From positions 1-64,000 of the IMG/VR virus record IMGVR_UViG_3300022602_001838: 64,000 bases of DNA; one strand, given 5' to 3'. The notes under the pieces are model-generated. The model had not been told where the DNA came from. It did no database searches and was given only the letters and a program-made list of their open reading frames with translations. Within the stretch, counting starts at the first letter, position 1. The number at the start of each line of letters is the position of its first letter. Shown piece after piece: positions 3,281 to 64,000 of this stretch. The DNA comes from a virus. The translations under genes and the position numbers were made by a program.

Positions 3281-3924
3281 AAGTACTGACAGTAGGTTGC
3301 AGTTTCACTTATGGTGAAGAACTAGCACATCCACAGGCAGATTCTTGGCCAGTTGTGTTGGCTAGAAAAAATTTTTGGGAACTGAATAACCAAGGCAAAT
3401 GTGGTGGCAGCAACGACAGAAGTACTCGTGTTGTATTTGAAGAAATAGATAAGGGCTACGATCTAATCATAGTTGCTTGGACAGTGCCAGACAGATTTGA
3501 AGTCCCAGCAAATGGTACAGTCTTGGACATAAACATCAACAGTGGTGAAAAGCGCAATATGTATTGGGCAACTGAGTACTATGCAAAACACTATGATAGA
3601 CTTTATAGCTATACAAAGTGGTTGAGAAATGTTATACTGTTGCAAAGTTATTTGAAAAGTCGTAATCAACGCTATCTATTTTGTAGCACATTTGGTATGT
3701 GGAGTGATCTAGGCATAGACACATATCAGGAATATAGTAAGAATCTAGATTGGTTAATCAAGCAAGTGGATAAAGAACACTACGTTGATTGGCCAGAATG
3801 GGGAATGACAGACTGGATGGGCAATTGCCCAAAAGGTCCCGGCGGACATCCTTTAGAAGCTGGACACACAAGTATTGCAGTAAGAATCAATGAACACATT
3901 AGGCATCTCGGCTGGCTTTCATGA
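3277..3924 (+). CDS. SGNH/GDSL-like hydrolase or acyltransferase
   Basis: GCSFTYG, GGSN and C-terminal GHPLEAGH. Confidence 0.6.
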   Translation: MKVLTVGCSFTYGEELAHPQADSWPVVLARKNFWELNNQGKCGGSNDRSTRVVFEEIDKGYDLIIVAWTVPDRFEVPANGTVLDININSGEKRNMYWATEYYAKHYDRLYSYTKWLRNVILLQSYLKSRNQRYLFCSTFGMWSDLGIDTYQEYSKNLDWLIKQVDKEHYVDWPEWGMTDWMGNCPKGPGGHPLEAGHTSIAVRINEHIRHLGWLS

Positions 3925-5368
3925 TGCGGCAGCAACAGTATTAGACCGTTATGGTAATATACTGTTTGCAGGCCACAGTGAACGCTACAGCAAACAAAAG
4001 AATGACGCAGAAATATCGTTTGATCTAATCGACGAGATTGATATGTCACGCATTAGCACCATTGCCTATTACGAACGTCCTTGGCTTAAACAACTACGTA
4101 GAGCCTACAGCGGAGAAGGAATCGAGTGGCACAAGTTAACTACAAGACAAATACTTGAACATCAACTTGGTAGAACCAGAATCAAGGGCAAGAAGATTAG
4201 AAATTATAGTCATCATCTAAGTCACGCAGCAGCTGGCTTTCAGACCAGTAAGTTTGATCGTGCCACAGTAGTTGTCATTGACGCTATCGGTGAATGGGAT
4301 ACTATCAGCATATGGGGCGCAGAGTATGTGAACAACCAAGCACGATACACTAAGCTATGGACACAAAAGTATCCACACAGTATTGGCTTGTTCTACAGTG
4401 CCATTACTGAAAAGATTGGACTCAAGCCCAATGAAGATGAATACATCACAATGGGTATGGCGGCGTATGGCAAAGATTTTGTCAGTATGGCCATGCGTAA
4501 CAGAATAGTAGGTCACGAATATGCAGTTACGTTCAAACAGAACCTACACCTTGGACTACACGATGAATACTTTAACATATTCCACGATGCTGACATGGCA
4601 GCAAGCGCACAGGCAGTAACAGAAGATTTGATACTAAATGTAATGACTCGTGCTAAAAAGTTCAAGTGGAGCACAAACTTAGTTTATATGGGAGGTGTAG
4701 CCCTTAACTGCACCGCTAACGCAAGAATAGGAAATTACTTCGATGATATATGGATTATGCCTTGTCCTGGCGATGCTGGCTCTAGTCTGGGGGCCGCTGC
4801 ACTTTCTTATGGCCATAGGATTAATTGGACAGATGCTTTTTTGGGTCACATTATTCCTGGTGCTTACCCTGTTAATGACGCCTTGGATCATTTACTGTCT
4901 GATCGCATTGTTGGTGTTGCGAGTGGTCGTGCAGAATTCGGACCGAGGGCGCTAGGCAACAGAAGTTTATTGGCAGACCCTAGACATAAAGATATAAAGG
5001 AACGTGTAAATGAAATTAAACAACGACAACAATTCAGACCCTTTGCGCCAATTATTCTGGAAGAGTTGGCTGATACTTACTTTGATATGCCTCGTGGTTG
5101 GGATACTAGTAGGTATATGCAGTCAGTCGCTCGTTGCAGGGTTCCTGACTTATTTCCTGCTATCGTTCACGTTGATTCAACTAGTCGTGTACAGACTGTG
5201 CCAAAAGATGGATCGGGAATTAGAGAACTGCTCGAAAAGTGGTATGTAATGACAGGCTGCCCAATGTTGCTCAACACCAGTCTGAATGTAAAAGGCGAGC
5301 CTATGGTCAATGATCGTGCTGACGCAGACAGATTTGAACGCCTGTATAAAGTAAAGGTGGTATCGTGA
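3890..5368 (+). CDS. Carbamoyltransferase (NodU/CmcH/TobZ family)
   Basis: HDAAA, HHLSHAA, GGVALNC, GDAG, EFGPRALGNRSLLADP, FRPFAP and LLNTSLN motifs. Confidence 0.93.
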   Translation: MNTLGISAGFHDAAATVLDRYGNILFAGHSERYSKQKNDAEISFDLIDEIDMSRISTIAYYERPWLKQLRRAYSGEGIEWHKLTTRQILEHQLGRTRIKGKKIRNYSHHLSHAAAGFQTSKFDRATVVVIDAIGEWDTISIWGAEYVNNQARYTKLWTQKYPHSIGLFYSAITEKIGLKPNEDEYITMGMAAYGKDFVSMAMRNRIVGHEYAVTFKQNLHLGLHDEYFNIFHDADMAASAQAVTEDLILNVMTRAKKFKWSTNLVYMGGVALNCTANARIGNYFDDIWIMPCPGDAGSSLGAAALSYGHRINWTDAFLGHIIPGAYPVNDALDHLLSDRIVGVASGRAEFGPRALGNRSLLADPRHKDIKERVNEIKQRQQFRPFAPIILEELADTYFDMPRGWDTSRYMQSVARCRVPDLFPAIVHVDSTSRVQTVPKDGSGIRELLEKWYVMTGCPMLLNTSLNVKGEPMVNDRADADRFERLYKVKVVS

Positions 5369-9596: not shown

Positions 9597-10475
9597 ATGC
9601 GCATCCAAGAGATTATCACTGAAACACTGAGCAGAGTTGCTTATCATTATACTAATGTTTCCTCTGCACTAAAGATTGTGAAGTCGGGCGTGTTTGAACT
9701 CAGTAGTAGTTTGGGTAGTATCGAACAACAATATGCACCAAAGGGACACAACTACTTTCTAAGCACGACTCGTACCAAGATGGGCAATTACCATCGCAGT
9801 CGTGCAAGCAGTTATGGCGTCATATTTGTTTTAGATGGTAATTGGTTCAACAATCACTATGTGTCTAGACCCATAGACTACTGGGAAAATCGTAATCCAC
9901 AGGCCAGTCATCACAGAGATAGCGAAGCCGAAGACAGAGTTTTCAGCAGAGAGCCAACAATACCAATTGGTGGGGTTGTTGCTATTCATGTTCTGGCAGA
10001 TCCAGCAGAAGCACGACCACACAACAACGCCATTGTGCGTGAGTTGCTGATTGCTGCAAAAACTCAGGGCATCAAAACATACTTGTATGCTGATTTTAAC
10101 CCTTGGGCTAACCTAGATACAAGAAAAACCATTGCACCAACACACTTGACAGGTCAGCGTGACCCAGCATGGTTCCGTCCAAAGCGTAAAGCTGGTTATA
10201 TGCAGCATTGGATTGAGTTGATGATGATTGACGACAAGTCCAAGCTAAGTCCAAAAGCTGACCAAATGCGTTATAGTTTGAACTATACCTATGATAAGCA
10301 ATCTGCCATAGATGCATTGAAAACAGATTTAAGCAATGCACGTAAACCAGAAAACGGTCAAGAGCGCGCCGCAGCAGTCAGAATTATTGGTTATATGCGC
10401 CAGCATCGACTAAACACAGTTGCTGACTTTGTTGAGCACATTGCCAACAAGTGGAAACAGACTCAGGCTGTATAA
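9597..10475 (+). CDS. Putative virion-packaged ADP-ribosyltransferase-fold protein
   Basis: MRIQEIITE leader and a late promoter; YHYT, LSTTR and EAE motifs occur in the H-S/T-ExE order of ART folds. Confidence 0.45.
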   Translation: MRIQEIITETLSRVAYHYTNVSSALKIVKSGVFELSSSLGSIEQQYAPKGHNYFLSTTRTKMGNYHRSRASSYGVIFVLDGNWFNNHYVSRPIDYWENRNPQASHHRDSEAEDRVFSREPTIPIGGVVAIHVLADPAEARPHNNAIVRELLIAAKTQGIKTYLYADFNPWANLDTRKTIAPTHLTGQRDPAWFRPKRKAGYMQHWIELMMIDDKSKLSPKADQMRYSLNYTYDKQSAIDALKTDLSNARKPENGQERAAAVRIIGYMRQHRLNTVADFVEHIANKWKQTQAV

Positions 10476-49487: not shown

Positions 49488-50618
49488 TTATCCCTTGAAT
49501 TGTTCCAGCAGAATAGTGATGGCTTCTCTGACACCGGGGTCGTGCATATAGTACTGCTTTAGGTCTTTGTCCAAATAAGCTGGTCGCTTCATTGGATCTC
49601 CTGCGATACTTTCTGACTTGCGTTTGTTTTCAAAGTAGTCCATATTCTTATCCAAATCATAGATATATGATTTTGGTTCTTGTTTGTGTCGCTTGGGGTC
49701 AGCACACAATCTATCTAAATTACTATAACTCCAAGATTGGAAGTAGTCTGTGTTATAGAATGTGTCTGCGTTGTATTGTACCAGTGTACTCTGTGCAATG
49801 GATTTTCTGCCCTTGCTGTCTCTGGTATCAAAGAATGGTCTCAGCATACTGAATTCCCATTTCAAATTGTAGTAATGCCACCACCACCAATCTGATATGG
49901 TGTTGATACCTTCAATACCGACTTCTTCAATGTTTGCGCTGACTTTATCTGTGTACCAATCGGCAAAACTCTGACTGGCGCCTTTGTTAACTATGCCCTG
50001 TGCAATCAATCTTCGATTGTTGCGCCAAGGCAGTAAGTGCTGTTTATCTGCTAACAGATACTCATACATGGGCATACTGGGTCCAAACAAACAATCTCCT
50101 GGGTCACCGTGCGCAACAATGTGCGATTTGACGAACTCATCAGTGACATTTAGTGTAGCAGTTTCACGGCATTCTATTTTGCCTTCTATGAATTCTTGAT
50201 AGAAATGTGGGTTTTCTTCTACACTTTTTGCCGAATGATAGATAACAATCTGTTCTAGGTCGTTAGTGTTCTTTATCAAGGCACTGAGCACACAAGTGCT
50301 ATCAATGCCCCCACTCCACATCACAGCTATTCTACGATCTTGTGCAAGCAACTCTGTTGCTCTGCGATCCAACAAGTCGCTTAACTTGTCCTGAACATAA
50401 TACAATTCGGGAGCAGCAAATACGGGATTGCTAGTTGCTGACCAAGGATTAGTAAATGTGCCCTGTCTGGCTCTAAGATCGTGTAGCCCCAATACATAGA
50501 AAGCAATCTCTGCCCAATGTTGACCTTTTCCAGCAACACGCATCTGACGTATTGGCAAACATACCATAGCACTTGACTTTAATCCGGCTAAATGGTAATC
50601 TACGTAACGTGGGTTCAT
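49488..50618 (-). CDS. PP-loop / asparagine-synthetase-C-like protein
   Basis: VMWSGGIDST, HGDPGDCLFG and WW...NLKW motifs. Confidence 0.7.
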   Translation of the reverse strand: MNPRYVDYHLAGLKSSAMVCLPIRQMRVAGKGQHWAEIAFYVLGLHDLRARQGTFTNPWSATSNPVFAAPELYYVQDKLSDLLDRRATELLAQDRRIAVMWSGGIDSTCVLSALIKNTNDLEQIVIYHSAKSVEENPHFYQEFIEGKIECRETATLNVTDEFVKSHIVAHGDPGDCLFGPSMPMYEYLLADKQHLLPWRNNRRLIAQGIVNKGASQSFADWYTDKVSANIEEVGIEGINTISDWWWWHYYNLKWEFSMLRPFFDTRDSKGRKSIAQSTLVQYNADTFYNTDYFQSWSYSNLDRLCADPKRHKQEPKSYIYDLDKNMDYFENKRKSESIAGDPMKRPAYLDKDLKQYYMHDPGVREAITILLEQFKG

Positions 50619-50744: not shown

Positions 50745-51282
50745 AAGAATATTTAGCGCGGAATGTAGCGTATAGGCTATATCTACTGGAATCTTTGACT
50801 GGATTAAGCATACCGTGTGGTAATCGTCTGTTGCAAATAGTTATGTAACCTGAATTTGGTACGAAAGCACAAGTATGTCTGCCTTTAGTAGTATACCAAG
50901 TAGTGCCAATATATGGGTCTAGACTTTGAATATAGACCTGAAAATGTGCATATACAACATTATCATCTTCGTGGAATGGAATCATATAACCAGGATCGTC
51001 ACGCCAGACTCTGACCTGATTGCATTGTATGTTTTGATTGTCTAGTAGTTCAATGATACCAGACATATCAACTGAGGTCAATTCTTCTAAGATGCCATCA
51101 TTGACCCAAGTCAATTCTTGTCTTAAATTACTTGCTGTACTTTGTACAAATGCTTCTTGGTCTAGCCCAAGCACAGTTTGTTTGATGTATTCAAAATCAG
51201 CAGAGTCAAAAAATTGACCAACACTCCATAGCCCATCGTCCAAAGGTACTACGTCTGATAGATTTAACTTGAGTTTTTTCAT
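50743..51282 (-). CDS. 2OG-Fe(II) oxygenase-like protein
   Basis: HED (HxD)...PHG...RYSLY. Confidence 0.7.
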   Translation of the reverse strand: MKKLKLNLSDVVPLDDGLWSVGQFFDSADFEYIKQTVLGLDQEAFVQSTASNLRQELTWVNDGILEELTSVDMSGIIELLDNQNIQCNQVRVWRDDPGYMIPFHEDDNVVYAHFQVYIQSLDPYIGTTWYTTKGRHTCAFVPNSGYITICNRRLPHGMLNPVKDSSRYSLYATFRAKYS

Positions 51283-52241
51283 TAGAATAAGTCTGGGTTT
51301 TGGTCAGCAAAGTCACGCATCAACACACCCGCTTGTGCGTTGGCTTCGTTCTCGATCTCACTGCCAGTATCACCGTCGCCTGGTTGAATTCTGTCTTCTT
51401 CACGTTGTTTGTGATGTGTGAGTTCGTGACCCAATGTTCGCAGCATATCCATGATATGACGATCTCGGTATGCTACTTGTACGGTATTTGTATTTGGATC
51501 AAATAGACCAAATGTTGGATGTTCTGTAGAACCAATCTCTGCTACAAGTTTAATCTTTGGTAGTCGTTTAATACCCAAAGATTTAACGCAGTGTTTGACA
51601 AAGTTGTTGCCAACTCGATGTAGGTCTGGCTCGGCAGATTCTTTTAAGTGTTCTTTTTGGAATGTGTCAGCAAAGGCCTTACACATTTTTTCAATATCTG
51701 GATTGTTTGTGAAGCGAATATCAAAGTCGTTGTGCTCAACTTCTTGATGTTCTGGATCACGGTATCCGCAATAGACCACTTTAACAGGAGTAGTTTCAAT
51801 CAGTTCGTTGCAGCTAATGCCCTGTCTGTCTGGCATATCATCTACACAAGGACTCAGTGTAGTAACAATCACAGCATCTTCGGGTATCTCGCCATACATA
51901 CTCTTGAACTTGTCTAGTGCTCTGCGTTCAGCATGTGCCCACTTACCTTCAAAATGGCTAGTGGCGCAGACCTTTTTACCGTCGCCGATTACCGCAGCAG
52001 CAACAAGTCCACTACCACTGTCTTTGCGTTTGTTTTTGATGATCAGATCGCAGAGTTCTACTAGAACATCATCATAATCAGTTTCTTGTGATTCTGCTAG
52101 ATCAAATGCTTTGAGATTCTTTTGTATCTGTCCTGGACGAACATCCTTGGTCAGACTCATACTATAACGAGGGTCTTTAGCTTGTGATTTCGTAGCAATC
52201 ACGCCAGTACCACCAGCCTCAAACAACTCGTAGATATTCAT
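51282..52241 (-). CDS. Modular putative head protein: deaminase domain plus zincin-like domain
   Basis: MNIYELFE leader; HAE...TTLSPC...C (CDA/RibD-like); LRTLGHELTH...E.EAN (HExxH). Confidence 0.7.
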   Translation of the reverse strand: MNIYELFEAGGTGVIATKSQAKDPRYSMSLTKDVRPGQIQKNLKAFDLAESQETDYDDVLVELCDLIIKNKRKDSGSGLVAAAVIGDGKKVCATSHFEGKWAHAERRALDKFKSMYGEIPEDAVIVTTLSPCVDDMPDRQGISCNELIETTPVKVVYCGYRDPEHQEVEHNDFDIRFTNNPDIEKMCKAFADTFQKEHLKESAEPDLHRVGNNFVKHCVKSLGIKRLPKIKLVAEIGSTEHPTFGLFDPNTNTVQVAYRDRHIMDMLRTLGHELTHHKQREEDRIQPGDGDTGSEIENEANAQAGVLMRDFADQNPDLF

Positions 52242-52681
52242 TTCAAGACGCTTCTTAACATCCAGCTGTGTTTGCGATGTGCGTCCATACGCTCTGCTAA
52301 GAAGTTGCTGAATCCGTGTTCACCTTCTGCCTCAGCAACATCATAGACCATCTTTAACAAGATGCACATTTTGTCGCTGTCTTCTAGCAACATAGTGACC
52401 ATAGCACCATCTGGGATGACTTCGGTTTGGTCTTCAATACGAGTAAGAACACTCAACTTGCTCAAACTACCTGGAGCGTAGCAGTCTAAGGCGCGCAACT
52501 TTTCAGCAAAGTCATCTATGATGCCATAGACTTCTTCGTAGATGTTTTTAAATAGTTCGTGGAACTGTTGAAAGTGAACACCTTCGACATTCCAGTGAAA
52601 CTCGTGTGCCTTAAGATAGAAAGCAAACTCGCTGGCGAATGCGATTCTGGCTGCTTGCTGTAGTTGTGATAGTTCTTCCAT
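52238..52681 (-). CDS. dps: Dps DNA-protection ferritin-like protein
   Basis: HWNVEG..F...HELF..IY......D.FAE..R...HRKH.WML; TATAAATA 4 nt upstream. Confidence 0.93.
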   Translation of the reverse strand: MEELSQLQQAARIAFASEFAFYLKAHEFHWNVEGVHFQQFHELFKNIYEEVYGIIDDFAEKLRALDCYAPGSLSKLSVLTRIEDQTEVIPDGAMVTMLLEDSDKMCILLKMVYDVAEAEGEHGFSNFLAERMDAHRKHSWMLRSVLK

Positions 52682-52688
52682 ACTGTAT

Positions 52689-55600
52689 TTATATAATGTC
52701 GTATCCAGCTCGTTTCATAGCATAAAGACGACTTTCCATGATTTCATCTTCGTCAAATGGTAACTCTGTTTGCAACTCTTCTGGATCGTGCAACAACTCT
52801 TGTGTATGTCCCGGAGTTACCTTCATTGGGGCATTAGCTGGATTTTTCAATCCTCTGAGCTGACTTATCAAAGCATCTTTTTGGATTGTTAGTCTGGCTT
52901 TTTGACTTGAATCATCCCCGTAACTTCCAGGTATTTTATCCAACTGTTTTTGAATCAATTTGATCTGTTGCTGTAACTGTGTGATTGAGTCGTGATCATT
53001 GCTCTTAGCTGGAGCTGCTACTGGTGCTGGGGTAGGATGAACTTGTTGTTTTAGTTCATCTTTAGCAACTGGTTTGTCCAACTCTTTTCTAATCACTTCA
53101 CGCTCTTTGCTGTCTTGGTCTTTTTTCTGTTGAACTGGCACATCTGCGGCACGGACTTTGCTTGGCAAAGTTTGTGTTTTGACTTGATCAACTCGTTGAC
53201 TCAATCTGCGTAACAAATCTTGTTGCTGTTTGTTAACAGTTTCAACACCCTGTAACTCTCGTTCAGTACTGTCTAGTTCTGAGCTTAATGGATCTAGTTG
53301 ACGCAAAATTTTGTTGACCTGTGCGTAGTTGTCTCTGGTCTGTTTAGCAACCCCGCTCAAATATCCAAACACTGCGTCTGTATCGCTTTGTGCTTCTGGG
53401 TTAGTACGGCGAGCAACTCTGATTAGTTCTTTACCAGCTGGGCTAGAGATAGCTTCGTTGGTCTTTTGCTTTTGTGGTTGTTGACGTTGTTGTTTGCGTT
53501 TTTCTTGTTGAGCAACACGTTTGACCATGTCTTGATACTCATCACCATAATCAGCTTCTTGGTCTTTTTTCTTGCTTTCACCCAAGCTGCCCATACCACT
53601 ACCACCCACTGGGCTAGTTGTGTCTGTGACTGGAGCAATGCCGCCTCCGCCAAAGCCGCCACCGTATTGATCCTCACGAGTGTAGTTTCCAATTGGCTGC
53701 AGGATAAAATCCTCTGCACTTAACTTTTGTCTTGTTGGATCAGCTTCTGCTTTATGAACATATGTGTCGATGACTCGTTTAGCCATGATGTGATTAACTG
53801 CCTTAGCAACTATGATTTTTTTATTACTACGGTGTGGATTATAAATCACATTGACTTTTTGATCTGAGTGGAATATTCTAGACTCATCCACTTCGCCTCC
53901 TGGACTTGCACTACCCACTTGTTGTCCATCAGAGTTCATAATAAATATGGCCTCATTGCGAGCATTGGCAAGTTCTTGAGCCGCTTGAATAGCATCGCCT
54001 CCTCCCCAAAATTGACCAAGCATTGTGCCTTGCGCATCTGTTAGATTGAATGAATCGTCGTCGGTGTCATCGTTGTATTCATTTTCCTGTGGTCTTGCAC
54101 CGCCTACACGACCTGCATCGTCATTTACAAACACATGGATGTTGCGTTGATTTGCATATTGCTGTGCGGCATCTAGTGCATCTTCTTCTGAACCATTTAT
54201 GATATCAATAAGACCACCTTCGCTGTTTGTTAAACTATATTGACCCTGCGCAAGTCTTTGTTCTTGGTCTGCTGTGCGCTGACTTGTAAACTTGGCTGCA
54301 TCGGCTTTTGGAGCTGCCTTAGTGCCTGGTAATGGAAGTGGTTTACTTGTATCACCACGCAGTGCTTTAACAGCATCAACAAATCCTGGATCTGTTTGTT
54401 TAATGGTCTGCATATAGCCAATACCAACAGCATTCTTATCACGGTTCTCGTTATACATACCAAATGCACTACCACGTTCAGTACCATGAGCGCTGAATTT
54501 ATCAGCAAACTGTTCCAAGGTACTTCGTTTTGTTGGGAACATTTCGAGGCGTAAGAAGTTTTCTGGTGCTGCCGAAGCAATATTTTCTTTTGTTGCTGTA
54601 GCAAATCCACTATCTGCTAACAATCGTTCGCGGGCACTTGGATCTGGTACAACTTTGACAGTTATTCTACCAGTCCCGTAGTTAGATTTTGCCCAATATT
54701 TGGCAGCTTCTATTGCTTGTTCTGGTGTGCTACCACGAGTCGTAACAACATCAACAAAACGAACTGGAATACCACGAGCCGCAATAGAACGAATATCAGT
54801 TAATGCCAATTTATCAGAGTTTGAAACTTCAGGAGCTTTCATCATCTTGACCAACTTACCAACATATTCATCACGATAGGCAGTTGGATCACTTGCGATA
54901 ATCATGGCACGAACAAAACGGCCCACTGTGTTGGCAATATCTGCTGCCTTGCTCAAATAGTCACCACCTGCGTGTCTGAATGAAACATACTTGCCGTTAA
55001 AGTTGACTGTGGCAAAGTGATCGTCGCTGATGCGTTTGACCATCTCTTTCATTTCTTTTTCTGCGTCTTTGAATGTGGTAGAACCAACAGTTGGCAAACT
55101 ACCGTTGCCCTTTAGATTATTGATAACACTGCGAGCATAGCTGTTGTTTTCACGACCAAACTGTTTCAACACATAGTTGTCACCAATGAATGTTGCCAAC
55201 TTTAGCACATCAAGTTTGTCCGGAATACTGACATTGATGTGTAGGCCAGTAGAGTTGTTGGTATAGAAGTTTAACTGTTGTGCTTTCTGATACCATGTGC
55301 GTAGTGCTGTCATTGCAGCATCTGCCTTCAGTGGGGGACTAACAACCTCTGCTGCATAATCGCCCTGATTTGGGCGCAAGCTACCGTCTGGTTCAATATA
55401 CCAACGGTCAAGTTTCTTTGTTGCTTGGTGATACCCTCGGAAGATTTCCATGTTGTCACCAAACACATCTTTAAGATTTGCCTTCAAAAACTCAGCGCCG
55501 TCCATGTAATCGCCACTGTGGCTACTGCGTCTGCGTGGTGCTAAACTTGCTGGTTCAGCGGCCCCGGGAGTAACATAGTACCAAAGTTTTTCTTTTAGAG

Positions 55601-56693
55601 TGTCTGTGTTGTTATTAACGCGACCTTTGAATGCCCACTTGGTCTTTAACAAGTCTTTGAGATTGTCTGTGCCCATTGTTTCTGTGCAAAAATCAGCAAA
55701 GTGTTGTTTAAATTTATTAAGAAGTTCTGGAGTTTGCTCTTGTCTATAACTCCAGCCTGGAATATATTCACTGTAAAATTCATCTCTGCGACCATCTTCG
55801 GCGTTAGCAACTTGACTGCAACGACCGTCCACTGGACCAGTAGTAACACGATAGCAATGAAGCATTGCATCTTTGATTTGTGTGATTACTTCGGGGGTCA
55901 ACGCACTTTTTGCAACACGGCCACTGAAATCAATATCAGTATAATCTTTGAGAACTCTGATGACAAAATCACGAGCGTTGACATCCACGGGATTACCCTC
56001 TGCGTCTCTGCCATATCTGCGTTCAGCGTCACCGTTCATAAAATAAGCCGTCATATTTTTGAACTCACGGTCTTTTAACAGTTTTTTTAATTTTTCTAAG
56101 ATTGGGCTGCCTCTTTCGTCATTTGCTATAAGGTCCCTGACTTTTGTTTCTGCCCAATTTCTATAGTGCGCCCAAACGCTTTTGTACCCACCAGATGCAA
56201 CCTGAACGCTGCTTTTATACTTGAACAAGTCATCAAAGACTTTTTGAAATTTATCGCTACCATGTGCGGTACGCAGAATACCATCTATCAAATCGTTTGT
56301 GGTCTTGCCCTCAATCCATGTAATACTGTTTGGATCATAGCCCGCTGGCACTTCTTGTGGGCCCTCTTTCCATGCTTTTACAGTTCGTACTGGAATCAGT
56401 GTTTCAAACTCAAAACCAACCAACACACCTTTTTCAGCACCCTGACTAATAGCCTGAGCAAACGCTGAGGGGTTCATGGCTACTTCGTCAATATTGTCTT
56501 CTGTGACAGCCTCTTCTTCCATACTGCCGATTGGACTAACATCATTGTCTGTGCCCCAAGTAGCACTGACGCCATTGCCATCAGCCAATGCACCATCGAT
56601 GCCGTTATTCTCTTGAACACCCATCATTAGACCATTAAAGTCTTCGGCTAGTGTGTTCTTCTTGGTGCCTTCAAATAATGTGTATAAGTTCAT
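52689..56693 (-). CDS. Large modular putative head protein containing an amidoligase (COOH-NH2 ligase) domain
   Basis: MNLYTLFE leader; GFEFE, EPDGSL, EVVSPPL, STGLHINVS and FR motifs; tandem ~55-aa repeats; coiled coil. Confidence 0.7.
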   Translation of the reverse strand: MNLYTLFEGTKKNTLAEDFNGLMMGVQENNGIDGALADGNGVSATWGTDNDVSPIGSMEEEAVTEDNIDEVAMNPSAFAQAISQGAEKGVLVGFEFETLIPVRTVKAWKEGPQEVPAGYDPNSITWIEGKTTNDLIDGILRTAHGSDKFQKVFDDLFKYKSSVQVASGGYKSVWAHYRNWAETKVRDLIANDERGSPILEKLKKLLKDREFKNMTAYFMNGDAERRYGRDAEGNPVDVNARDFVIRVLKDYTDIDFSGRVAKSALTPEVITQIKDAMLHCYRVTTGPVDGRCSQVANAEDGRRDEFYSEYIPGWSYRQEQTPELLNKFKQHFADFCTETMGTDNLKDLLKTKWAFKGRVNNNTDTLKEKLWYYVTPGAAEPASLAPRRRSSHSGDYMDGAEFLKANLKDVFGDNMEIFRGYHQATKKLDRWYIEPDGSLRPNQGDYAAEVVSPPLKADAAMTALRTWYQKAQQLNFYTNNSTGLHINVSIPDKLDVLKLATFIGDNYVLKQFGRENNSYARSVINNLKGNGSLPTVGSTTFKDAEKEMKEMVKRISDDHFATVNFNGKYVSFRHAGGDYLSKAADIANTVGRFVRAMIIASDPTAYRDEYVGKLVKMMKAPEVSNSDKLALTDIRSIAARGIPVRFVDVVTTRGSTPEQAIEAAKYWAKSNYGTGRITVKVVPDPSARERLLADSGFATATKENIASAAPENFLRLEMFPTKRSTLEQFADKFSAHGTERGSAFGMYNENRDKNAVGIGYMQTIKQTDPGFVDAVKALRGDTSKPLPLPGTKAAPKADAAKFTSQRTADQEQRLAQGQYSLTNSEGGLIDIINGSEEDALDAAQQYANQRNIHVFVNDDAGRVGGARPQENEYNDDTDDDSFNLTDAQGTMLGQFWGGGDAIQAAQELANARNEAIFIMNSDGQQVGSASPGGEVDESRIFHSDQKVNVIYNPHRSNKKIIVAKAVNHIMAKRVIDTYVHKAEADPTRQKLSAEDFILQPIGNYTREDQYGGGFGGGGIAPVTDTTSPVGGSGMGSLGESKKKDQEADYGDEYQDMVKRVAQQEKRKQQRQQPQKQKTNEAISSPAGKELIRVARRTNPEAQSDTDAVFGYLSGVAKQTRDNYAQVNKILRQLDPLSSELDSTERELQGVETVNKQQQDLLRRLSQRVDQVKTQTLPSKVRAADVPVQQKKDQDSKEREVIRKELDKPVAKDELKQQVHPTPAPVAAPAKSNDHDSITQLQQQIKLIQKQLDKIPGSYGDDSSQKARLTIQKDALISQLRGLKNPANAPMKVTPGHTQELLHDPEELQTELPFDEDEIMESRLYAMKRAGYDII

Positions 56694-57778
56694 TTCGTTT
56701 GTCCTGGAACAGGGTTCTGCTGTGCAGTATTTGTGCTTTGTTGTGGTTGTTGACCCGCTGGCTGATTGGTACCAGTTTGTTGCTGTGCCTGTTGAACTTT
56801 AAGTTCTTTTTGCTTGTCTACTGTATCTGCTTTGGTAATCAACTGTTTCATTTGTGCAGCAGTCTGTGGGTTTTGCAAGGCCTTGCTTGTAGCAACTGCC
56901 AATGGTTCCATTTGCTTTAACTCTTGTGCATTTAAATCAGTGTTTGGCTTGTCATCAAGTTTAGTCATAGTATCACTGAACTTGACTTTATTTAATGGCT
57001 GCGCTGCACCCTGTTGATTTAATGCTGTAGATAACTGATTGGTATTCTTTTGAATCTGTTGCTGATCCATTTTCTGTTGTTGAGCTTTTGGATCGGGATT
57101 TTGATTTGTACTACCTTGTGGGGCTTGACTAGCAGCACCATAGCCACCAGTGCCACCATACTCGTTCAAGTCTTCTTTATCTTGCCACCAGTATTTTTGA
57201 CCTGCCTGCGTAGCTTTGGTTGGACGAGCTTTTGCTTTTGGACCACGATAGCCACGTTCCCATGCTGCTGCACCTGCTGCTGCTGATTTGCCCTGTTTAA
57301 CAAAGTGAGCAATCACTGCCTGCTTGCTGTCTAGTTCTTCTGCTATGAGTTGATTTATAAATGACTCGTTGATTTCGACTGGCATCATCTTACAAACTTC
57401 TTTTTTGGTCTCTATCTTAGCACTGGGCACACGTTGTTTCAACATCATCAAGTCTTGTTCTGCTTGTCCAAGATTGTTATATTTTGACGCTGGCTTATCA
57501 TTTACATAAAGAACAAACTCGTCTGCACTTTCTTTAAACTCTTGGAACTCACGCATTAATTGATGTGCGTTGGTACGAGGATTCTCTACTAGTGCTTTTT
57601 CTAGGTCTTTGATAATGCTTTCTTCTGCACTGCCACCAACCATTTTGTTCTTGGCCTGGCTTGCTTTGTCAGTGCCTTTCCAGTATCCAGGAAACTTTGG
57701 ACCCGTTGGCTTCTTAGTATCGCTTTTCATACTTTCGTCAATGCGGGCTAACTTGCCCAACAGGTCTCGCATACTCAT
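56690..57778 (-). CDS. Modular hypothetical protein (putative head protein)
   Basis: MRDLLGKLARIDES leader; segments bounded by xES/xE motifs; Gln-rich tail. Confidence 0.6.
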   Translation of the reverse strand: MSMRDLLGKLARIDESMKSDTKKPTGPKFPGYWKGTDKASQAKNKMVGGSAEESIIKDLEKALVENPRTNAHQLMREFQEFKESADEFVLYVNDKPASKYNNLGQAEQDLMMLKQRVPSAKIETKKEVCKMMPVEINESFINQLIAEELDSKQAVIAHFVKQGKSAAAGAAAWERGYRGPKAKARPTKATQAGQKYWWQDKEDLNEYGGTGGYGAASQAPQGSTNQNPDPKAQQQKMDQQQIQKNTNQLSTALNQQGAAQPLNKVKFSDTMTKLDDKPNTDLNAQELKQMEPLAVATSKALQNPQTAAQMKQLITKADTVDKQKELKVQQAQQQTGTNQPAGQQPQQSTNTAQQNPVPGQTK

Positions 57779-58965
57779 CTTTTAATCATCCCTGATTTCT
57801 TTGGCTTTTTGGCTTTGAATGGACTGTTCTTTTGGCTATAGTTACCACCAAACAATGTACCAACATTGCTGCCTTTACCAACGCTCATAGATGTAGCAAT
57901 ACCACCAGCACCGCCACCTGCACTGGCAAACTCCATCAATTTGCTTTCAAACATCTCAGCATAGTCTGGGCTTTCCTTCATACCAGGATAGCGCTGTTTG
58001 CCGGGCTGTCCTTCGTTGCCATCATCACGAATTGGATGTGCTTCGTCACTGTAGTTGCCTCTTGGCATTTTTTGCGCCACACTTTGCTTTTGTAGATAAG
58101 CATAGTTGGTTACCAGGTCGCCTGGAAAGTCTTCGTTATACGTAAATAACATACGAGCACGACGGTCACCTAGTTCATCACGAGCAATAGTATATGCCGC
58201 TCCTAATACTTCTTCAGCAGAACCTGACGAAACTAAATTGGGATTTTCATTAAAGACTTGTTGTGCCAACTGTTCTGCATAATTAGAGCCTTCCGCCACA
58301 CCTTGATCGCCTTTGATAGAAAAAGGTTTCATTCCCATTTTCTGTCTAAGCACATTGATTTCTTGTATGGTTCTGAACTCACCATCTTGACATTTCAAAC
58401 GCATAGGTTCATTCTCGTCCCACGATGTGAATTTTCCGCGTTTGTTTATTGCCGGGGTAGCACTAGCACGGCCATCCAATCCTTCCGTCATGCCTTGTTC
58501 AAACATACCAGATTGGCCACGATGCATTTCTTTTTCGCTGATCAAATACTGCATAACGCTGGTCAACATACCTTTGGCAGCGCCCATCTTTTCTGCTACC
58601 CATTCAGGAATATCATCATCGGCACTGATATTTTTGTTTAAGTACACTGCCACGCGGTGTATGGTGTGTAGGCTGTTTTTAAATGTAGAACCATCATGCT
58701 CGGGTTCGCCGATGAATTCTTCGCCCACGCCTTGCTCACCAAGCCCATGTACTCTCAACGACTTCTCGTAATGAGATTCTTCATCGTTTGCTGGCTCATC
58801 GTCAAAATCATCAAAATCCCCATCAAATTCTTCTTCATCGTGATTGCCGTGCAAATCGTTGTAATAATCTTCATCACTGTCATAGTTATGAGGATTGATT
58901 TCATTGACGGTCTTGATAGATTCTGTCATCAATTTATTAATGTTAAAAAGATCGTTGGTTTTCAT
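57775..58965 (-). CDS. Modular hypothetical protein with QG(V/M)xE linkers (putative head protein)
   Basis: QGVGEE, QGMTEG, QGVAEG; ATAAATA at 58987-58993. Confidence 0.65.
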   Translation of the reverse strand: MKTNDLFNINKLMTESIKTVNEINPHNYDSDEDYYNDLHGNHDEEEFDGDFDDFDDEPANDEESHYEKSLRVHGLGEQGVGEEFIGEPEHDGSTFKNSLHTIHRVAVYLNKNISADDDIPEWVAEKMGAAKGMLTSVMQYLISEKEMHRGQSGMFEQGMTEGLDGRASATPAINKRGKFTSWDENEPMRLKCQDGEFRTIQEINVLRQKMGMKPFSIKGDQGVAEGSNYAEQLAQQVFNENPNLVSSGSAEEVLGAAYTIARDELGDRRARMLFTYNEDFPGDLVTNYAYLQKQSVAQKMPRGNYSDEAHPIRDDGNEGQPGKQRYPGMKESPDYAEMFESKLMEFASAGGGAGGIATSMSVGKGSNVGTLFGGNYSQKNSPFKAKKPKKSGMIKR

Positions 58966-60113
58966 ATTATTTTATCCGTGTTAGCGTATTTATGCGAAAA
59001 ACAATCCGCCGCCTCTGACATTGACTTCCCCGTTTATAGTCATATTTTGTGTGTAAAATACTGGGTCAGAGTTACATTCACGCACATACAATCTGTGCGC
59101 CCCTGGTTCAATATTAATTTCGATGTGTTCTCTAATGAATACATCGTATGCAGCCCAAGTCCAACTGCGTTCTGTGAGCATTTCATCATCAACATAGATG
59201 CGGTAGCTGGGCTGGCCTTCGCTACGACTGCAATAAACATCCACAGTTAAACTTACTGCTGCCATTATTTTGCCTTCTTCATACCAGCAATCAAGGCAAG
59301 CTCTTGATCAATACTTTGGACCACGCTTTCTGTCAGACCTTGCTTATGAATGAATCCACGACTATTTTGTGGAACATTTGTGGTGCAAAACTTGCCGCAT
59401 ACTTTGCCAGTTTTGTCAGTAGCGTGATGAGTCCACTCTAGATCATTTTTTGGTTTAATAACATTCAACCCTTGCGATTTTGCGTCATCTGTCCAAGATT
59501 TCAAATCTCGGTGCAACACTCTGCCTTCTGCCACACCTTGCTTGATGCTTTTAAGAATAGATTTAGCCTGGGTGCTAGAATCATATGAGCCAATTTGAGT
59601 GTTGACTCTTCCCATTGCTTGGAGAATTTTTCCATCGGCAGCATAATGAGTGACCTTGCCACCTTTTACTCTGAACAATATGCCGCGAAAACTATAAATG
59701 CCATCCGGTTTGCTTACTGACTTATCAATAATTAAATTTACATTATCGTTATCTAACACCCCGTACTGGATTTTGCCTTCCGCCACACCTTGCTCCCAAA
59801 CTTTAGAACCAGCACCTTTATTCTTGTCCCAGAAATGTGAGCCGGCATCTGTTTGGTGTTGACTACGATTGATTCTAAAGCCTTTTGCTTTGAGCATATC
59901 ATACACTGTTTGAGCGATGCCTTGCCCTCTGTATTCAGGTGTTACAGACATATCCTGTGCTTCAAGATCATGGCCAAGCATATCAAATGTAAAGCCTGCC
60001 ACTTGTTTTCCGCCCAATGTAACATCAACATAAAGTTCTTCACCTGCTGTTTCTATGTTGAATTTCATCTTGGGTTTGACGAATTTGTCCAATAAGCCTT
60101 CCGCCAAGCCGCC
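58289..60113 (-). repeat. Dispersed 17-bp repeat CAAGGTGTGGCGGAAGG (encodes QGVAEG)
   Basis: Identical copies at 58289-58305 and 59776-59792; one mismatch at 59524-59540; degenerate copies at 58481-58497, 58718-58734, 59326-59342 and 60097-60113. Confidence 0.85.
58990..59265 (-). CDS. Hypothetical beta-rich protein
   Basis: PSYRIYVDDEMLTER; resembles the N-terminus of 60743-61219. Confidence 0.65.
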   Translation of the reverse strand: MAAVSLTVDVYCSRSEGQPSYRIYVDDEMLTERSWTWAAYDVFIREHIEINIEPGAHRLYVRECNSDPVFYTQNMTINGEVNVRGGGLFFA

Positions 60114-60716
60114 GCCCAAATACTTGTCTAGTATTTGTCTTGCCACTGCTGGATTGCGAGGATACAGGTCTGCGATAATGGCATTCTTTTGTGCATCATC
60201 TGCTTGTGGCCACATTGTGCGTATTTGTGTAGCACTGGTTACTCCACTGGGGCCTGCATCAAACTGTACAGTTGGCAAGTAGACCATGTAACCATGTTGA
60301 CTCATTGGAGCAAGATTGCCCTTGTGATATGGTTGTAGATAACTGGGAGTACCGTCTTTTTTGACACCACCTGCCCCTGGTGGTTCATTGCGATCTTTTT
60401 CGCTACGTGCAAAGATCAACACAGTATTATCAGGATCGTATTGACCAGTAACTTCTTTTGCTACAAAAGGGCTTTTTACCAGTTGGAAGTTCTTGGGGTT
60501 CACACCAGCGATCTGAGCAAGTTTTTGCTTTTCGGCAAATGGAAAAGGACGATCTTTACGGTCGTCCGTTGCTACATAAACGATGTGTGCTCCTGGGAAT
60601 GCTTGCTCTGCTGCTCGGTACAAGCTCAAGTGTCCGGGGTGAAATGGGTGAAAACCCCCTGGGATTAAGACCAGGGTTTGTTTTTGCTGTGCTTCAAAAA
60701 GATCAAGAATGAACAT
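59265..60716 (-). CDS. Modular protein: HxGH nucleotidyltransferase, GNAT acetyltransferase and two small modules
   Basis: MFILDLFE leader; PGGFHPFHPGH, SATQIR; V.PEYRGQGIA; modules separated by GLAEG, QGVAEG and QGLTES; ATAAATA at 60734-60740. Confidence 0.75.
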   Translation of the reverse strand: MFILDLFEAQQKQTLVLIPGGFHPFHPGHLSLYRAAEQAFPGAHIVYVATDDRKDRPFPFAEKQKLAQIAGVNPKNFQLVKSPFVAKEVTGQYDPDNTVLIFARSEKDRNEPPGAGGVKKDGTPSYLQPYHKGNLAPMSQHGYMVYLPTVQFDAGPSGVTSATQIRTMWPQADDAQKNAIIADLYPRNPAVARQILDKYLGGGLAEGLLDKFVKPKMKFNIETAGEELYVDVTLGGKQVAGFTFDMLGHDLEAQDMSVTPEYRGQGIAQTVYDMLKAKGFRINRSQHQTDAGSHFWDKNKGAGSKVWEQGVAEGKIQYGVLDNDNVNLIIDKSVSKPDGIYSFRGILFRVKGGKVTHYAADGKILQAMGRVNTQIGSYDSSTQAKSILKSIKQGVAEGRVLHRDLKSWTDDAKSQGLNVIKPKNDLEWTHHATDKTGKVCGKFCTTNVPQNSRGFIHKQGLTESVVQSIDQELALIAGMKKAK

Positions 60717-60742
60717 ATTATACGCCTATAGCGTATTTATGC

Positions 60743-62143: not shown

Positions 62144-62311
62144 TTATGCTTTTTGAACTTCTACGATTACGTTGGCACCGGCCAATTCCTGTGCTACCAC
62201 TTCTAAATTAGTCAGTGTGTCGTCATTGATGATTTGTGTAACGTCTTCTTCACTGTCTTTAATCAAAGTACTGAATGTAAGAACTACTGTTTCTTGGTTA
62301 ATTTTGGCCAT
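62144..62311 (-). CDS. 55-aa hypothetical protein (MAKINQETVVLTFS...)
   Basis: Read manually; AAGGAG RBS and ATAAATA at 62338-62344. Confidence 0.7.
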   Translation of the reverse strand: MAKINQETVVLTFSTLIKDSEEDVTQIINDDTLTNLEVVAQELAGANVIVEVQKA

Positions 62312-62340
62312 ATGCCACTCCTTGAATAATATGCTAGTAT

Positions 62341-63081
62341 TTATTGGAGGTGATCTATGGGGTGAATTTTTCCTACGATGCCAGGACTAATCAATGATAA
62401 AATAGTTGCAATACTGTCATCGTTTGCGTAGATGTATGCTCCCCAAAGGGCTGGATACTTTTTCTTTAGATGTGTCAGTACACCTCCTGGGATTTTAACA
62501 TCATCTCGGGCGGTTAACTGTGCCAGAATACTTCGTTTGGTTTCTAATGGGTAATTTCCGTCTCGCAACACAATCTTGTATTTGTATTCCGTTTTGTTCA
62601 GAAACACCACATTGTTGCGCAACGCATCTTCTGTGCCAGGTTTGGGTATGTTGATACTATACAAGTTGTCGTAAGAACTGATAGCTTCACTTATGATCTT
62701 TAGATCATATTCTGTTTCAGCATATACTTGTAGCATATTGCCCTCAGTTCTAAACTTGACTATGTGTTTGTGTGTTTTAATCACAGTGCGAACACGGTCA
62801 ATCAAAAACTCATCAACATCATCCCAGTTAATATAAGGGTTGTAGGTATAATTATTACTAGATTGATAGAAACCGCGATAGCCCATGCCTGCGTTGCCAC
62901 TATTAGCAGCAAGTCTATGCTTTATAACATAGGCAACGATATCCTCACAAAACTTGTCAGTGGCTAGATTTACCTTTTTTATATCATACACCAACCGCCA
63001 CAAGTAGCGGTTGAAGTATTGTTTTTTGGTAGTCTCTAGCTTGATATTGTGATTTAGATTAACCCAATACGATGAATCCAT
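62341..63081 (-). CDS. Hypothetical protein
   Basis: Long ORF; start placed at MDSSYW, overlapping the end of the clp gene. Confidence 0.65.
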   Translation of the reverse strand: MDSSYWVNLNHNIKLETTKKQYFNRYLWRLVYDIKKVNLATDKFCEDIVAYVIKHRLAANSGNAGMGYRGFYQSSNNYTYNPYINWDDVDEFLIDRVRTVIKTHKHIVKFRTEGNMLQVYAETEYDLKIISEAISSYDNLYSINIPKPGTEDALRNNVVFLNKTEYKYKIVLRDGNYPLETKRSILAQLTARDDVKIPGGVLTHLKKKYPALWGAYIYANDDSIATILSLISPGIVGKIHPIDHLQ

Positions 63082-64000
63082 TTTCATCCACTTGAGGTTG
63101 ATGGGTAGTAATCGTACTGAATTCAAACTTGTCATCGTTGAAATCAATTTCGACTGTGTTGTTTGGAGCGATGCCTTCGAACAAGATTTTCTTGCTCAAT
63201 GGAACTTTGATTAGTTCGTTGATCTTACGACCCAACGGACGAGCACCCATCTTGCTGTCATAACCAACTGTGGCCAGATGATCAACTGCTGCTTCGCTCA
63301 AACGAACTCTTATACCCTTTTCAGATAACAAGTCGTTGAGTTCGTTGATAAACTTGGCAACGATTTTCTTGACACTGAATGTATCCAACTTGTTGAACTT
63401 GCAGATAGCATCAATACGATTGCGGAACTCTGGCTTAAAGTAGTCTTTGACTGCTTTGTCATCTTCGCCACTGCGCTCAAGATCACGACCAAAGCCGATT
63501 GCATTACGCTCATTAGCGGCAGCACCCAAGTTACTAGTCATAATAATGATAGCATTACGAGCATCTGCTTTTTTACCACTGCTGCTTGTGACTGTACCTT
63601 CATCCATCAGACTCAGCAACACATTGCTAACGTCTGGGTGAGCTTTTTCGATCTCGTCAAACAAGATGATACTATTTGGATTCTTTTCCAAATCACTGAT
63701 CAACAGGCCACCACCCAAGTTGCCGTCATCATAGCCAACATAGCCAGGGGGCGCACCAATCAGTTTGGCTGCTGTGTGTTTCTCTTGATATTCGCTCATA
63801 TCATAGCGAACAAGTTTCATACCCAAGTTGTCAGCAAGCAATTTAGCCAGTTCTGTTTTACCAGTACCTGTTGGACCCAAGAACAAGAAACTTCCAATGG
63901 GCTTGTTCACAGATTTCAACCCAGCACGACTGACATAAATCTTTTCAAGCACATTCTCAACGACCTGATCTTGACCATAGAGCTTAGTGCGAATGTTTGA
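63059..64000 (-). CDS. clpA: ClpA/ClpB-type AAA+ chaperone, second ATPase domain (5' end outside the window)
   Basis: GPTGTGKT, DMSEYQEKH, LIGAPPGYVG, FDEIEKAH, MTSN, PEFRNRID and GARPL motifs. Confidence 0.9.
   Translation of the reverse strand, partial: SNIRTKLYGQDQVVENVLEKIYVSRAGLKSVNKPIGSFLFLGPTGTGKTELAKLLADNLGMKLVRYDMSEYQEKHTAAKLIGAPPGYVGYDDGNLGGGLLISDLEKNPNSIILFDEIEKAHPDVSNVLLSLMDEGTVTSSSGKKADARNAIIIMTSNLGAAANERNAIGFGRDLERSGEDDKAVKDYFKPEFRNRIDAICKFNKLDTFSVKKIVAKFINELNDLLSEKGIRVRLSEAAVDHLATVGYDSKMGARPLGRKINELIKVPLSKKILFEGIAPNNTVEIDFNDDKFEFSTITTHQPQVDENGFIVLG

Follow-up and report, generated by a model that had tools for sequence, protein, structure and literature searches.

A DNA-conserved joint between exchangeable protein modules in two candidate capsid-cargo genes of an uncultured freshwater phage

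Why should two neighbouring phage genes carry one and the same 17 nucleotides, in one reading frame, at the borders between unrelated protein modules? This question is raised by genes A and B, which lie on the minus strand of a 64,000-nucleotide stretch of virus DNA (hereafter the window), itself the first part of an 81.5-kb virus contig in IMG/VR (record IMGVR_UViG_3300022602_001838; CheckV completeness 23%, GC content 42.6%). The repeat, CAAGGTGTGGCGGAAGG, encodes Q-G-V-A-E-G and is here called the joint. The original prediction, made from the letters of the window, held that the joint is at once a protease site in the protein and a recombination site in the DNA, which would let the phage shuffle small effector cassettes into packaged polyproteins that are cut apart in the capsid and injected. 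We now regard it as practically certain that modules are shuffled at the joint, and we set out below how far the rest of this proposal holds.

The joint and the modules that it separates

Exact copies of the 17-mer stand on the minus strand at 58289-58305 in gene B and at 59776-59792 in gene A, with a one-mismatch copy at 59524-59540 and a three-mismatch copy at 58481-58497. These four matches at up to three mismatches compare with 0.07 expected from shuffles, and none of 100 shuffles reached four. When the whole 81.5-kb contig was searched at up to five mismatches, 23 matches were found, eight of them in frame within genes A and B (60097 GGLAEG, 59776 QGVAEG, 59524 QGVAEG, 59326 QGLTES, 58718 QGVGEE, 58481 QGMTEG, 58289 QGVAEG and 58070 QSVAQK); the remaining 15 are scattered, and a chance calculation gives about 16. 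Every copy named in the original prediction (two identical, one with a single mismatch and four degenerate in frame) was recovered, together with an additional decayed copy at 58070-58086 (QSVAQK). The copies had been said to mark module borders, and the resulting splits in residues, 206 (nucleotidyltransferase, NTase), 107 (GNAT), 84, 66 and 20 (tail) for gene A and 82, 79, 64 and 171 for gene B, indeed reproduce the predicted sizes. They had also been said to share one frame: in related DNA, 173 of 174 copies read as QGVAEG in long open frames, the median open-frame length at the 17-mer being 563 codons in the QGVAEG frame compared with 28 and 17 in the others. The features of the two genes are listed here, with a slash at the putative cut and with AF2 standing for the AlphaFold model.

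59265..60716, minus: gene A, 483-residue cassette polyprotein (leader, NTase, GNAT, 84-residue module, 66-residue module, 20-residue tail)
60099..60716, minus: module A1, adenylyl/cytidylyltransferase with NadD/NMNAT-like fold (PF01467, TIGR00125, AF2, Foldseek)
60096..60113, minus: joint 1, GGLAE/G, diverged, with TGGCGGAAGG in common with the consensus; AF2 low-confidence linker 205-214
59778..60098, minus: module A2, GNAT acetyltransferase-like (sub-threshold Pfam; AF2 folded domain at 215-300)
59775..59792, minus: joint 2, QGVAE/G, exact 17-mer; AF2 low-confidence linker 301-325; contigs branch here
59526..59777, minus: module A3, 84 residues, no recognisable family; 82-83/84 identical in P0008, P0030 and P0031 behind other heads
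59523..59540, minus: joint 3, QGVAE/G, one silent mismatch (GCA for GCG)
59328..59525, minus: module A4, 66 residues, no recognisable family; 64-65/66 identical in P0001, P0003, P0030 and P0031
59325..59342, minus: joint 4, QGLTE/S, 4 mismatches
59268..59327, minus: C-terminal tail of gene A, 20 residues, predicted helix (pLDDT 82-92)
57775..58965, minus: gene B, 396-residue cassette polyprotein of 4 modules, leader MKTNDLFNINKLMTE/S
58717..58734, minus: joint B1, QGVGE/E, 4 mismatches; homology to relative L022 begins here
58480..58497, minus: joint B2, QGMTE/G, 3 mismatches (GTG to ATG, GCG to ACG, GGT to GGC); L022 homology stops and L023 homology begins
58291..58482, minus: module B3, 64 residues; 98% nucleotide identity in L023
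58288..58305, minus: joint B3, QGVAE/G, exact 17-mer; many contig loose ends at 58285-58309
58070..58086, minus: decayed joint QSVAQK (CAAAGTGTGGCGCAAAA) within module B4, 4 mismatches, Glu lost

A fold could be recognised in two modules only, and the 'effector' label of the original prediction is accordingly a guess. The NTase of A1 matches Pfam PF01467 over residues 18-99 as well as TIGR00125, and its best Foldseek matches are NadD/NMNAT adenylyltransferases (E 4e-5, TM 0.5-0.6 by target); a PDB sequence search with this module gave no match. The GNAT scores of A2 fall below the Pfam cut-offs (PF13508, 21.7 against 27 bits; PF00583, 19.4 against 20.7). The AlphaFold model of gene A, built from 91 sequences, has confident domains at residues 10-204 (pLDDT >90) and 215-300, and joints 1 and 2 lie in linkers modelled with low confidence (205-214 and 301-325). 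The other modules belong to no recognisable family in Pfam, PHROG, NCBIfam or ESM Atlas: among nine pieces of the two genes NCBIfam returned only generic adenylyltransferase matches, for A1, and for B2-B3 the ESM Atlas matches, at 0.86, were all to clusters of hypothetical viral proteins and amount to no more than a lead. From its sequence, module B4 seems to have arisen from two modules that became one when the joint between them lost its Glu. What lies downstream of QSVAQK matches the beginning of a module that follows a GVAEG in the relative G003 (locus L156). Cargo modules of other relatives (L010, L025, L158) include a RelA/SpoT-type HD-like region (by eye), amidoligase-like regions and HExxH metallopeptidase-like modules. 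A four-mismatch look-alike at 62308-62324 (minus strand) is the ribosome-binding site and start codon of a 55-residue open reading frame (ORF); the joint therefore contains a Shine-Dalgarno-like core.

The source phage is an uncultured, giant, T4-like freshwater phage of about 350 kb. Its T4-type family-B DNA polymerase (46067-48727; phrog_262, E 3e-197) is 69-80% identical to those of five large virus records of 262-374 kb (G001-G005), three of which are 97-100% complete; G002, with a polymerase 71% identical, is rated 99%. The closest cultured phages by polymerase are Sinorhizobium phage Phosso (52%), Agrobacterium phage Atu_ph07 (48%) and the Rak2-like coliphages (43%). The clade is abundant, with polymerase relatives on more than 598 IMG/VR contigs and 2886 gene A homologues by protein search, 42 of which were inspected in sequence. 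The region was found in public runs from freshwater and lake metagenomes; runs X10-X24, which contain it at small shares of sampled words, say nothing finer about habitat, and the single RNA run with the region has a 0.05 share of sampled words. Against 50,697 phage records, the region gave no match by near-identity search, gene B none by tblastn, and gene A three weak partial tblastn matches only.

Exchange of modules and conservation of the joint DNA

The original prediction placed the gain and loss of modules in relatives exactly at the repeat, and this has held up both in breakpoints and in chain orders. By tblastn in IMG/VR, matches of genes A and B span single modules (residues 1-206, 204-313 and 79-237). 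When the region was compared by blastn with all related loci fetched, homology in L004 stopped at query position 689, where joint 1 begins at 688; in L010 it reached from joint 1 as far as joint 2 (697-1028, 94% identity); and in L022 it covered 2065-2326, B1 to B2, at 91%. In L023 it ran over 2302-2516, B2 to B3, at 98% and resumed, again at 98%, at 1256, 5 nt before joint 3, with A4 downstream of a gene-B-type module; a neighbouring module in the same gene is only 68.6% identical, its joints being intact. The NTase protein terminates at the joint position in L005, L006 and L008.

Compared with the window as proteins, P0001, P0003 and P0009 match the gene A NTase in 206/206 residues and differ in cassette order. 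The window reads NTase-GNAT-A3-A4-tail, P0009 reads NTase-X-Y-tail, P0003 reads NTase-B3-A4-X-Y-tail, and P0001 reads NTase-X-B3-A4-GNAT followed by another tail. The gene A tail is 20/20 identical in P0003 and P0009 though their cassettes differ, B3 is 63/64 identical within the gene-A-type proteins P0001 and P0003, and GNAT is 106/107 identical in P0001 at a different chain position. More generally, A3, A4, B3 and GNAT recur behind other heads at 97% identity or above. In P0030 and P0031, A3-A4 (82-83/84 and 65/66) stand behind a quite different head; the C-terminal tail of both resembles, by eye, that of a 1334-residue protein encoded beside genes A and B, and the N-terminus of P0030, though not of P0031, is weakly like that of the same protein (21/42). 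Modules are therefore exchanged among gene A, gene B and the large neighbour gene. A metagenome scan with P0003 yielded module-limited matches and returned no near-identical records. Over all loci, 165 site-bearing ORFs held 598 modules in 426 clusters; among the 33 clusters with at least three members, at least two right neighbours were seen in 25 and at least two left neighbours in 27.

Shuffling is also visible within populations. When Logan contigs of four lake metagenomes were placed on the region, 20 of the 24 loose ends listed lay within 5 nt of a joint, and a single run could show several different continuations at one joint. Logan contigs are built from 31-letter words, longer than the conserved block, so such breaks reflect real branching. 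In one contig of run X2, A4 is followed by GNAT, with the junction inside the joint and 50 letters on the shorter side; P0001 has this arrangement too. Two skip joints, 58305 to 59774/5 and 59346 to 59774/5, were considered as excision products and not counted, their sides of 20-22 letters being the repeat itself. Branching at the repeat is among the outcomes that support the original prediction.

The DNA of the joint is conserved at synonymous positions too, as had been claimed from the window. The exact 17-mer was found in at least 119 IMG/VR stretches. Among QGVAE peptides, codon usage predicts the exact spelling (CAA GGT GTG GCG GAA) in 0.26%, or 0.50% with usage from polyprotein ORFs; GCG is the rarest Ala codon (7-9%) and GTG makes up 20-22% of Val codons. 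Three samples lie far above this expectation. Exact spelling was seen in five of seven sites from 50 contigs picked by their DNA polymerase gene and, with a fully degenerate pattern, in 9 of 11 sites of the five large genomes (4 of 6 when one site each is discounted, as these genomes were reached via the 17-mer). Where the first residue is other than Q, so that a 17-mer search could not have selected the site, 40 of 53 xGVAEG contexts carry GGTGTGGCGGAAGG. Overall, about 70% of sites sampled independently of spelling are exact. The exact block stands in 165 distinct 107-nt contexts, whose flanks fall into 148 clusters upstream and 156 downstream. Positions of the block carry 2 bits of information each, the two bases before it 1.1 and 0.7 and the base after it 1.2, and most positions farther away carry about 0.1-0.3 bits; the full form of the joint is some 20 nt, (A)G-CAAGGTGTGGCGGAAGG-C, reading Q-G-V-A-E/G. 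Its variants resemble single-base derivatives of one ancestor (ATG ACG for GTG GCG at 58481; K or E for Q). We hold with high confidence that the joint is under real constraint at the DNA level.

As to how exchange takes place, the 'integron-like' mechanism first proposed does not stand. Phage_integrase (PF00589) was found in none of the five related genomes (262-374 kb), the control being positive in 14 of 14 known genomes, and Resolvase (serine recombinase) gave no match in the same five. No attC-like site is apparent at the joint, which was not folded: conservation lies within about 20 nt, the flanks are unrelated, and there is no inverted repeat or symmetry. The simplest mechanism is therefore general phage recombination acting on 10-20 nt of identity, and it seems likely to us that the joint acts as a recombination handle.

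Leaders and the joint as a candidate protease site

In T4, the prohead protease gp21 cuts after L/I-X-E and removes 65 residues from the N-terminus of gp23 (as described in part of PMC9026906). Among the large relatives of the window, a protease of this type (PF03420, Peptidase_S77) scores above cut-off in G001, G003 and G004, and a gp23-type capsid protein (PF07068) is present in three of the five. The head module of G003 runs from the portal through a small protein starting MIINELYE, an acidic protein starting MNKYEQLIEFIINEDE, the protease and the scaffold to the capsid protein. The first 42 residues of the latter contain four [LI]-x-E sites (LLE/G, LLE/G, ILE/N and LAE/N); the alignment to T4 gp23 residues 74-138 starts shortly after them.

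A similar motif recurs at the end of the NTase. In an alignment anchored on this module (91 rows, two of which, P0030 and P0031, are without an NTase), [VLIM]-x-E lies 5-18 residues past the last conserved helix in 90 rows, compared with 16.7% of random windows, and its P2 position is free (A, S, L, D, N, T, E, Q, K or H). Judged by sequence, this is what selection for a T4-type site would be expected to leave behind: the [VLIM]-x-E is kept in rows that have lost DNA likeness to the 17-mer. Moreover, the module that follows the leader LFE/A in a 319-residue neighbour follows the NTase joint in P0062 (VQE/D) and others; leader end and joint are therefore interchangeable. Taken together, this pattern makes it probable that the joint is a protease site. 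The phiKZ cleavage motif, which the original prediction had also invoked as a model, was set aside: S/A-X-E is not the best match, and the hydrophobic-x-E of T4 type (L/I-X-E) fits more closely.

Leaders similar to one another had been noticed in the late genes (M.I..LFE, IITE, IDES, LMTE), and all are present. They resemble in sequence pattern the capsid-targeting sequence (CTS) of T4, as given in part of PMC8442874, in five neighbouring genes (51282-60716) and in one at 9597: MFILDLFE/A in gene A, ..LMTE/S in gene B, and those listed here with the neighbouring genes.

60693..60716, minus: gene A leader MFILDLFE/A, residues 1-8, like the T4 CTS and ending in L-x-E
56690..57778, minus: 362-residue Q-rich protein, leader ..LARIDE/S (sequence)
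52689..56693, minus: 1334-residue protein, leader MNLYTLFE/G, amidoligase-like region (PF12224), long Q-rich stretches
51282..52241, minus: 319-residue protein, leader MNIYELFE/A, first module GVIATKSQAKDPRYSMSLT.. (sequence)
9597..10475, plus: gene with leader MRIQEIITE/T (sequence)
60734..60741, minus: CATAAATA, T4-late-promoter-like box, 17 nt upstream of gene A, within GCATAAATACGCTA
58987..58994, minus: second copy of the CATAAATA box, 21 nt upstream of gene B; GCATAAATACGCTA is common to both genes

The three leader-bearing neighbours are probably cassette-built cargo as well; the QGVAEG site is absent from the 1334-residue protein. A leader pattern matched 44 of 111 site-bearing ORFs and 144 of 1456 others; it was written after some ten leaders that the test set includes, and the controls include non-coding open frames. 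Five NTase-led chains that begin without a leader (P0037, P0041, P0044, P0052 and P0077) share a C-terminal end, ..DYIEEKWS.KYKSSINC..GFSQKAHCAGRKK, which from its sequence may be a C-terminal targeting or propeptide element. ORFs of 91 and 158 residues between or beside genes A and B have no detectable kinship (E 0.052).

A count of TATAAATA in the window, four matches compared with 2.6 expected, was not significant, so that the CATAAATA box before both genes is a weak hint and lends weak support to their late expression. A GCATAAATAC box stands 7-21 nt upstream of three genes, the two cassette genes and one outside the window (73665-73672), and TATAAATA, TTAAATAA or AATAAATA stand at similar places before the head genes of G003; the GCATAAATAC-type box is a possible late-promoter variant. 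We put the chances that the modules are packaged and injected at about even.

Elsewhere in the window, 63059-64000 (minus strand, continuing to 65350) encodes a 763-residue ClpA/ClpB-like AAA+ ATPase, recognised by eye from its Walker and sensor motifs. A Nol-like carbamoyltransferase (3890-5368, plus strand; phrog_1601, E 4e-92) and a weak QueC-like match (49488-50618, minus strand; phrog_1550, E 8e-4) may be nucleotide or DNA modification genes.

Competing explanations and known systems

The joint might be a recombination handle and nothing else, a 'recer'-type DNA signal that encodes a harmless flexible linker in uncut multidomain 'polyvalent' proteins, packaged or not. Its DNA is conserved past any peptide need, the 15-bp recer repeats provide a precedent (PMC3467074, in part), polyvalent phage proteins of 2-15 domains are known (PMC5512222, in part), and a clear leader is missing from many chains. 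Such an account leaves unexplained why [VLIM]-x-E, with P2 free, is kept in nearly every aligned row after the DNA has drifted, and why modules are also found by themselves, as single proteins that carry a leader and have their start or end where the joint lies; the decayed QSVAQK, moreover, indicates that drift does happen once a joint is lost. We consider this account unlikely.

Conversely, the joint might be a protease site alone, its DNA identity having no function of its own and stemming from recent descent and from gene conversion of joints that spread with modules. The single-base nature of the variants (ATG ACG at 58481; K or E for Q) and the movement of modules at 91-98% nucleotide identity would suit such a history. 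However, the exact block stands in 165 contexts with unrelated flanks on both sides, it is found across phages with polymerases only 69-80% identical, a module at 68.6% lies beside one at 98% in L023 with the joints intact, and under neutrality the rare codons GCG and GTG should have changed. We judge this account decidedly unlikely.

A dedicated sequence-specific enzyme, either a homing-type nuclease or some unknown recombinase, might recognise the ~20-nt joint and drive exchange, as the sharp bounds of the block, its length of 17-20 nt (that of a nuclease or recombinase target) and a very fast turnover would allow. The five related genomes gave no match to Phage_integrase or Resolvase, there is neither an inverted repeat nor a conserved flank, and no candidate gene emerged, homing-nuclease families not having been searched for; this we find very improbable. 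Even less can be said for a signal in RNA or translation, whereby an internal Shine-Dalgarno-like AGGTG and the rare GCG would slow ribosomes between domains and aid folding: the block does hold AAGGTG with the rarest Ala codon, and a fortuitous look-alike at 62308 is a genuine ribosome-binding site, yet all five codons are fixed, common ones included, no start codon lies downstream at ribosome-binding distance, and a pause would leave the homology breakpoints at the block unexplained. That the permutations are artefacts of chimeric metagenome assembly at a short repeat deserves next to no weight, for though the data are all metagenomic, contigs break at joints and the GNAT-A3 junction of the window lacks a second witness, the conserved block (at most 20 nt) is below the Logan word length, A3-A4 recurs in P0030, P0031, record 5 of X10 and the window, A4-GNAT recurs in P0001 and the X2 contig, some clusters occur on many contigs (P0017 on 39), and the copies in related DNA keep their frame with one exception.

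On balance, then, cassette-built cargo proteins that are cut in the capsid and shuffled at the joint form the explanation that we favour by a little over even. Several points weigh against it. As regards exchange, the GNAT-A3 junction of the window was seen in no other sequence examined, and a part of the arrangements may be chimeras of assembly; for homologous recombination 17-20 nt is a short tract, and the breakpoints at joints could in part reflect the survival of in-frame recombinants only. The sites are kin by descent, so that a binomial test on their spelling overstates their independence. As regards cutting, P3 is mostly Val where the T4 motif has L or I, and the fixed Q-G before and G after exceed the needs of a short Glu-specific motif; the peptide could therefore be incidental to a DNA signal. 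As regards packaging, the leader pattern fails on 67 of 111 site-bearing ORFs, and distant NTase-led chains begin directly with the enzyme. PF03420 and PF07068 gave no match in G002 or G005 though G002 is 99% complete, for which a divergence of the head genes, the masking of stretches or a miss by the filter may account. The window's own contig, a 23% fragment, holds no head genes, and the clade has no cultured member, isolates reaching only 43-52% polymerase identity.

According to the cut-and-shuffled reading, autonomous modules of 60-200 residues would be strung together in frame by a standard ~20-nt joint, the DNA identity of which would offer a crossover point for the phage's own short-homology recombination. 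Exchange could take place within a genome, between neighbouring genes and between co-infecting relatives, each event being in frame and leaving modules whole, with conserved heads and tails as outer anchors. Drifted joints (GGLAEG, QGMTEG, QSVAQK) would leave the exchange, and active copies would thereby stay identical. A CTS-like N-terminal leader would bring the chain into the prohead core, where a T4 gp21-type protease would cut V/L-x-E/G and release separate small proteins, including the NadD/NMNAT-like adenylyltransferase and GNAT; these would be retained in the capsid until they pass into the host together with the DNA, like IPI-III and Alt of T4. The stronger claim, that one ~20-nt joint is both capsid cut site and population-wide handle to a shared library of hundreds of injected modules, which giant lake phages would recombine in frame within and between genes at a strain-level pace, we advance tentatively and at clearly less than an even chance. 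Such a dual-role joint would be a functional integron for protein modules, working without an integrase or with a joint-specific enzyme.

Should both halves be true, the virus would vary what it injects ahead of its genome, when host defences act, and it would do so by shuffling ready-made modules instead of evolving new genes. The joint would then be a tangible example of silent sites held fixed, by selection or by self-propagation, for the sake of a recombination handle, the T4 rule of one leader and one cargo would extend to multi-cargo chains, and hundreds of small function-unassigned proteins would become candidate early-acting factors. As a matter of speculation, the NadD/NMNAT-like enzyme could bear on NAD-depleting defences. 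Anyone wishing to load several proteins into T4-type capsids would also find in the joint a rule of design ready for use.

How does such a system compare with those already known? With IPI, IPII, IPIII and Alt of T4 it shares the T4-type lineage, a gp21-like protease, short N-terminal leaders ending in hydrophobic-x-Glu, and diverse non-homologous cargo behind a common leader; the CTS has been described as a possible way to load varied proteins in T4 capsids (parts of PMC9026906 and PMC3012670). T4 internal proteins, however, are single proteins cut once, whereas here a chain holds several modules with internal sites and the site DNA is fixed. No homology to the four was found in Pfam, PHROG or NCBIfam, and gene B by tblastn against the 50,697 phage records came back empty. 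The inner-body and ejection proteins of phiKZ and SPN3US offer another parallel, in that a gp21-related protease cleaves many proteins inside the head on the C-terminal side of Glu, at redundant sites (PMC9026906, in part); the motif there is S/A-X-E, and that part of the source describes no cassette architecture or DNA-fixed joint.

Polyvalent proteins, known from phages and conjugative elements, have many unrelated enzymatic domains per polypeptide, are thought to travel with the DNA and have been proposed to be processed (PMC5512222, in part), to which the 4-5 modules of gene A, the four of gene B and the up to nine sites per ORF of relatives bear a likeness. Their processing is ascribed to an embedded MPTase domain, and that part of the source mentions no standard linker or DNA-fixed joint. 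Processing by MPTase was rejected here as a general explanation: PF18818 (MPTase-PolyVal peptidase) was found in none of the five related genomes, and HExxH is absent from the 1334-residue protein. Modules with HExxH do occur in the chains of two relatives (L025, L158).

Integron cassettes likewise have a standard short junction, a shared pool of small cassettes, one orientation and a fixed platform; an integron moves promoterless genes with an integrase and an attC-like site, neither of which is seen here, where in-frame protein modules are exchanged. PeSL cassettes of T4-type phages are larger, intergenic units of an early promoter and a stem-loop terminator that move whole genes (PMC2839356, in part), whereas the joint is coding and in frame. 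Glycine-rich motifs of the gp38 adhesin and other T-even tail-fibre motifs do lie in frame between exchanged hypervariable segments (PMC3157838, in part), but they belong to one folded domain whose segments are variants of each other, unlike the unrelated autonomous modules described here. In the recer system, direct repeats of about 15 bp at module borders in the intronless albumin-binding surface-protein genes of Gram-positive cocci have been proposed to permit in-frame shuffling (PMC3467074, in part). Both of its features, short DNA-conserved repeats at module borders and module exchange at the repeats, are present here; recer, however, is bacterial, is limited to few genes, comes with no protease-site reading and no population-wide module library, and is unrelated to the joint in sequence. 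We found no published account of one dual-role joint or of a DNA-fixed linker in phage cargo genes, in a search that did not cover subscription journals and supplements. To conclude, what is new in this locus is the combination of a putative delivery in the manner of T4 internal proteins with 'recer'-type in-frame shuffling.

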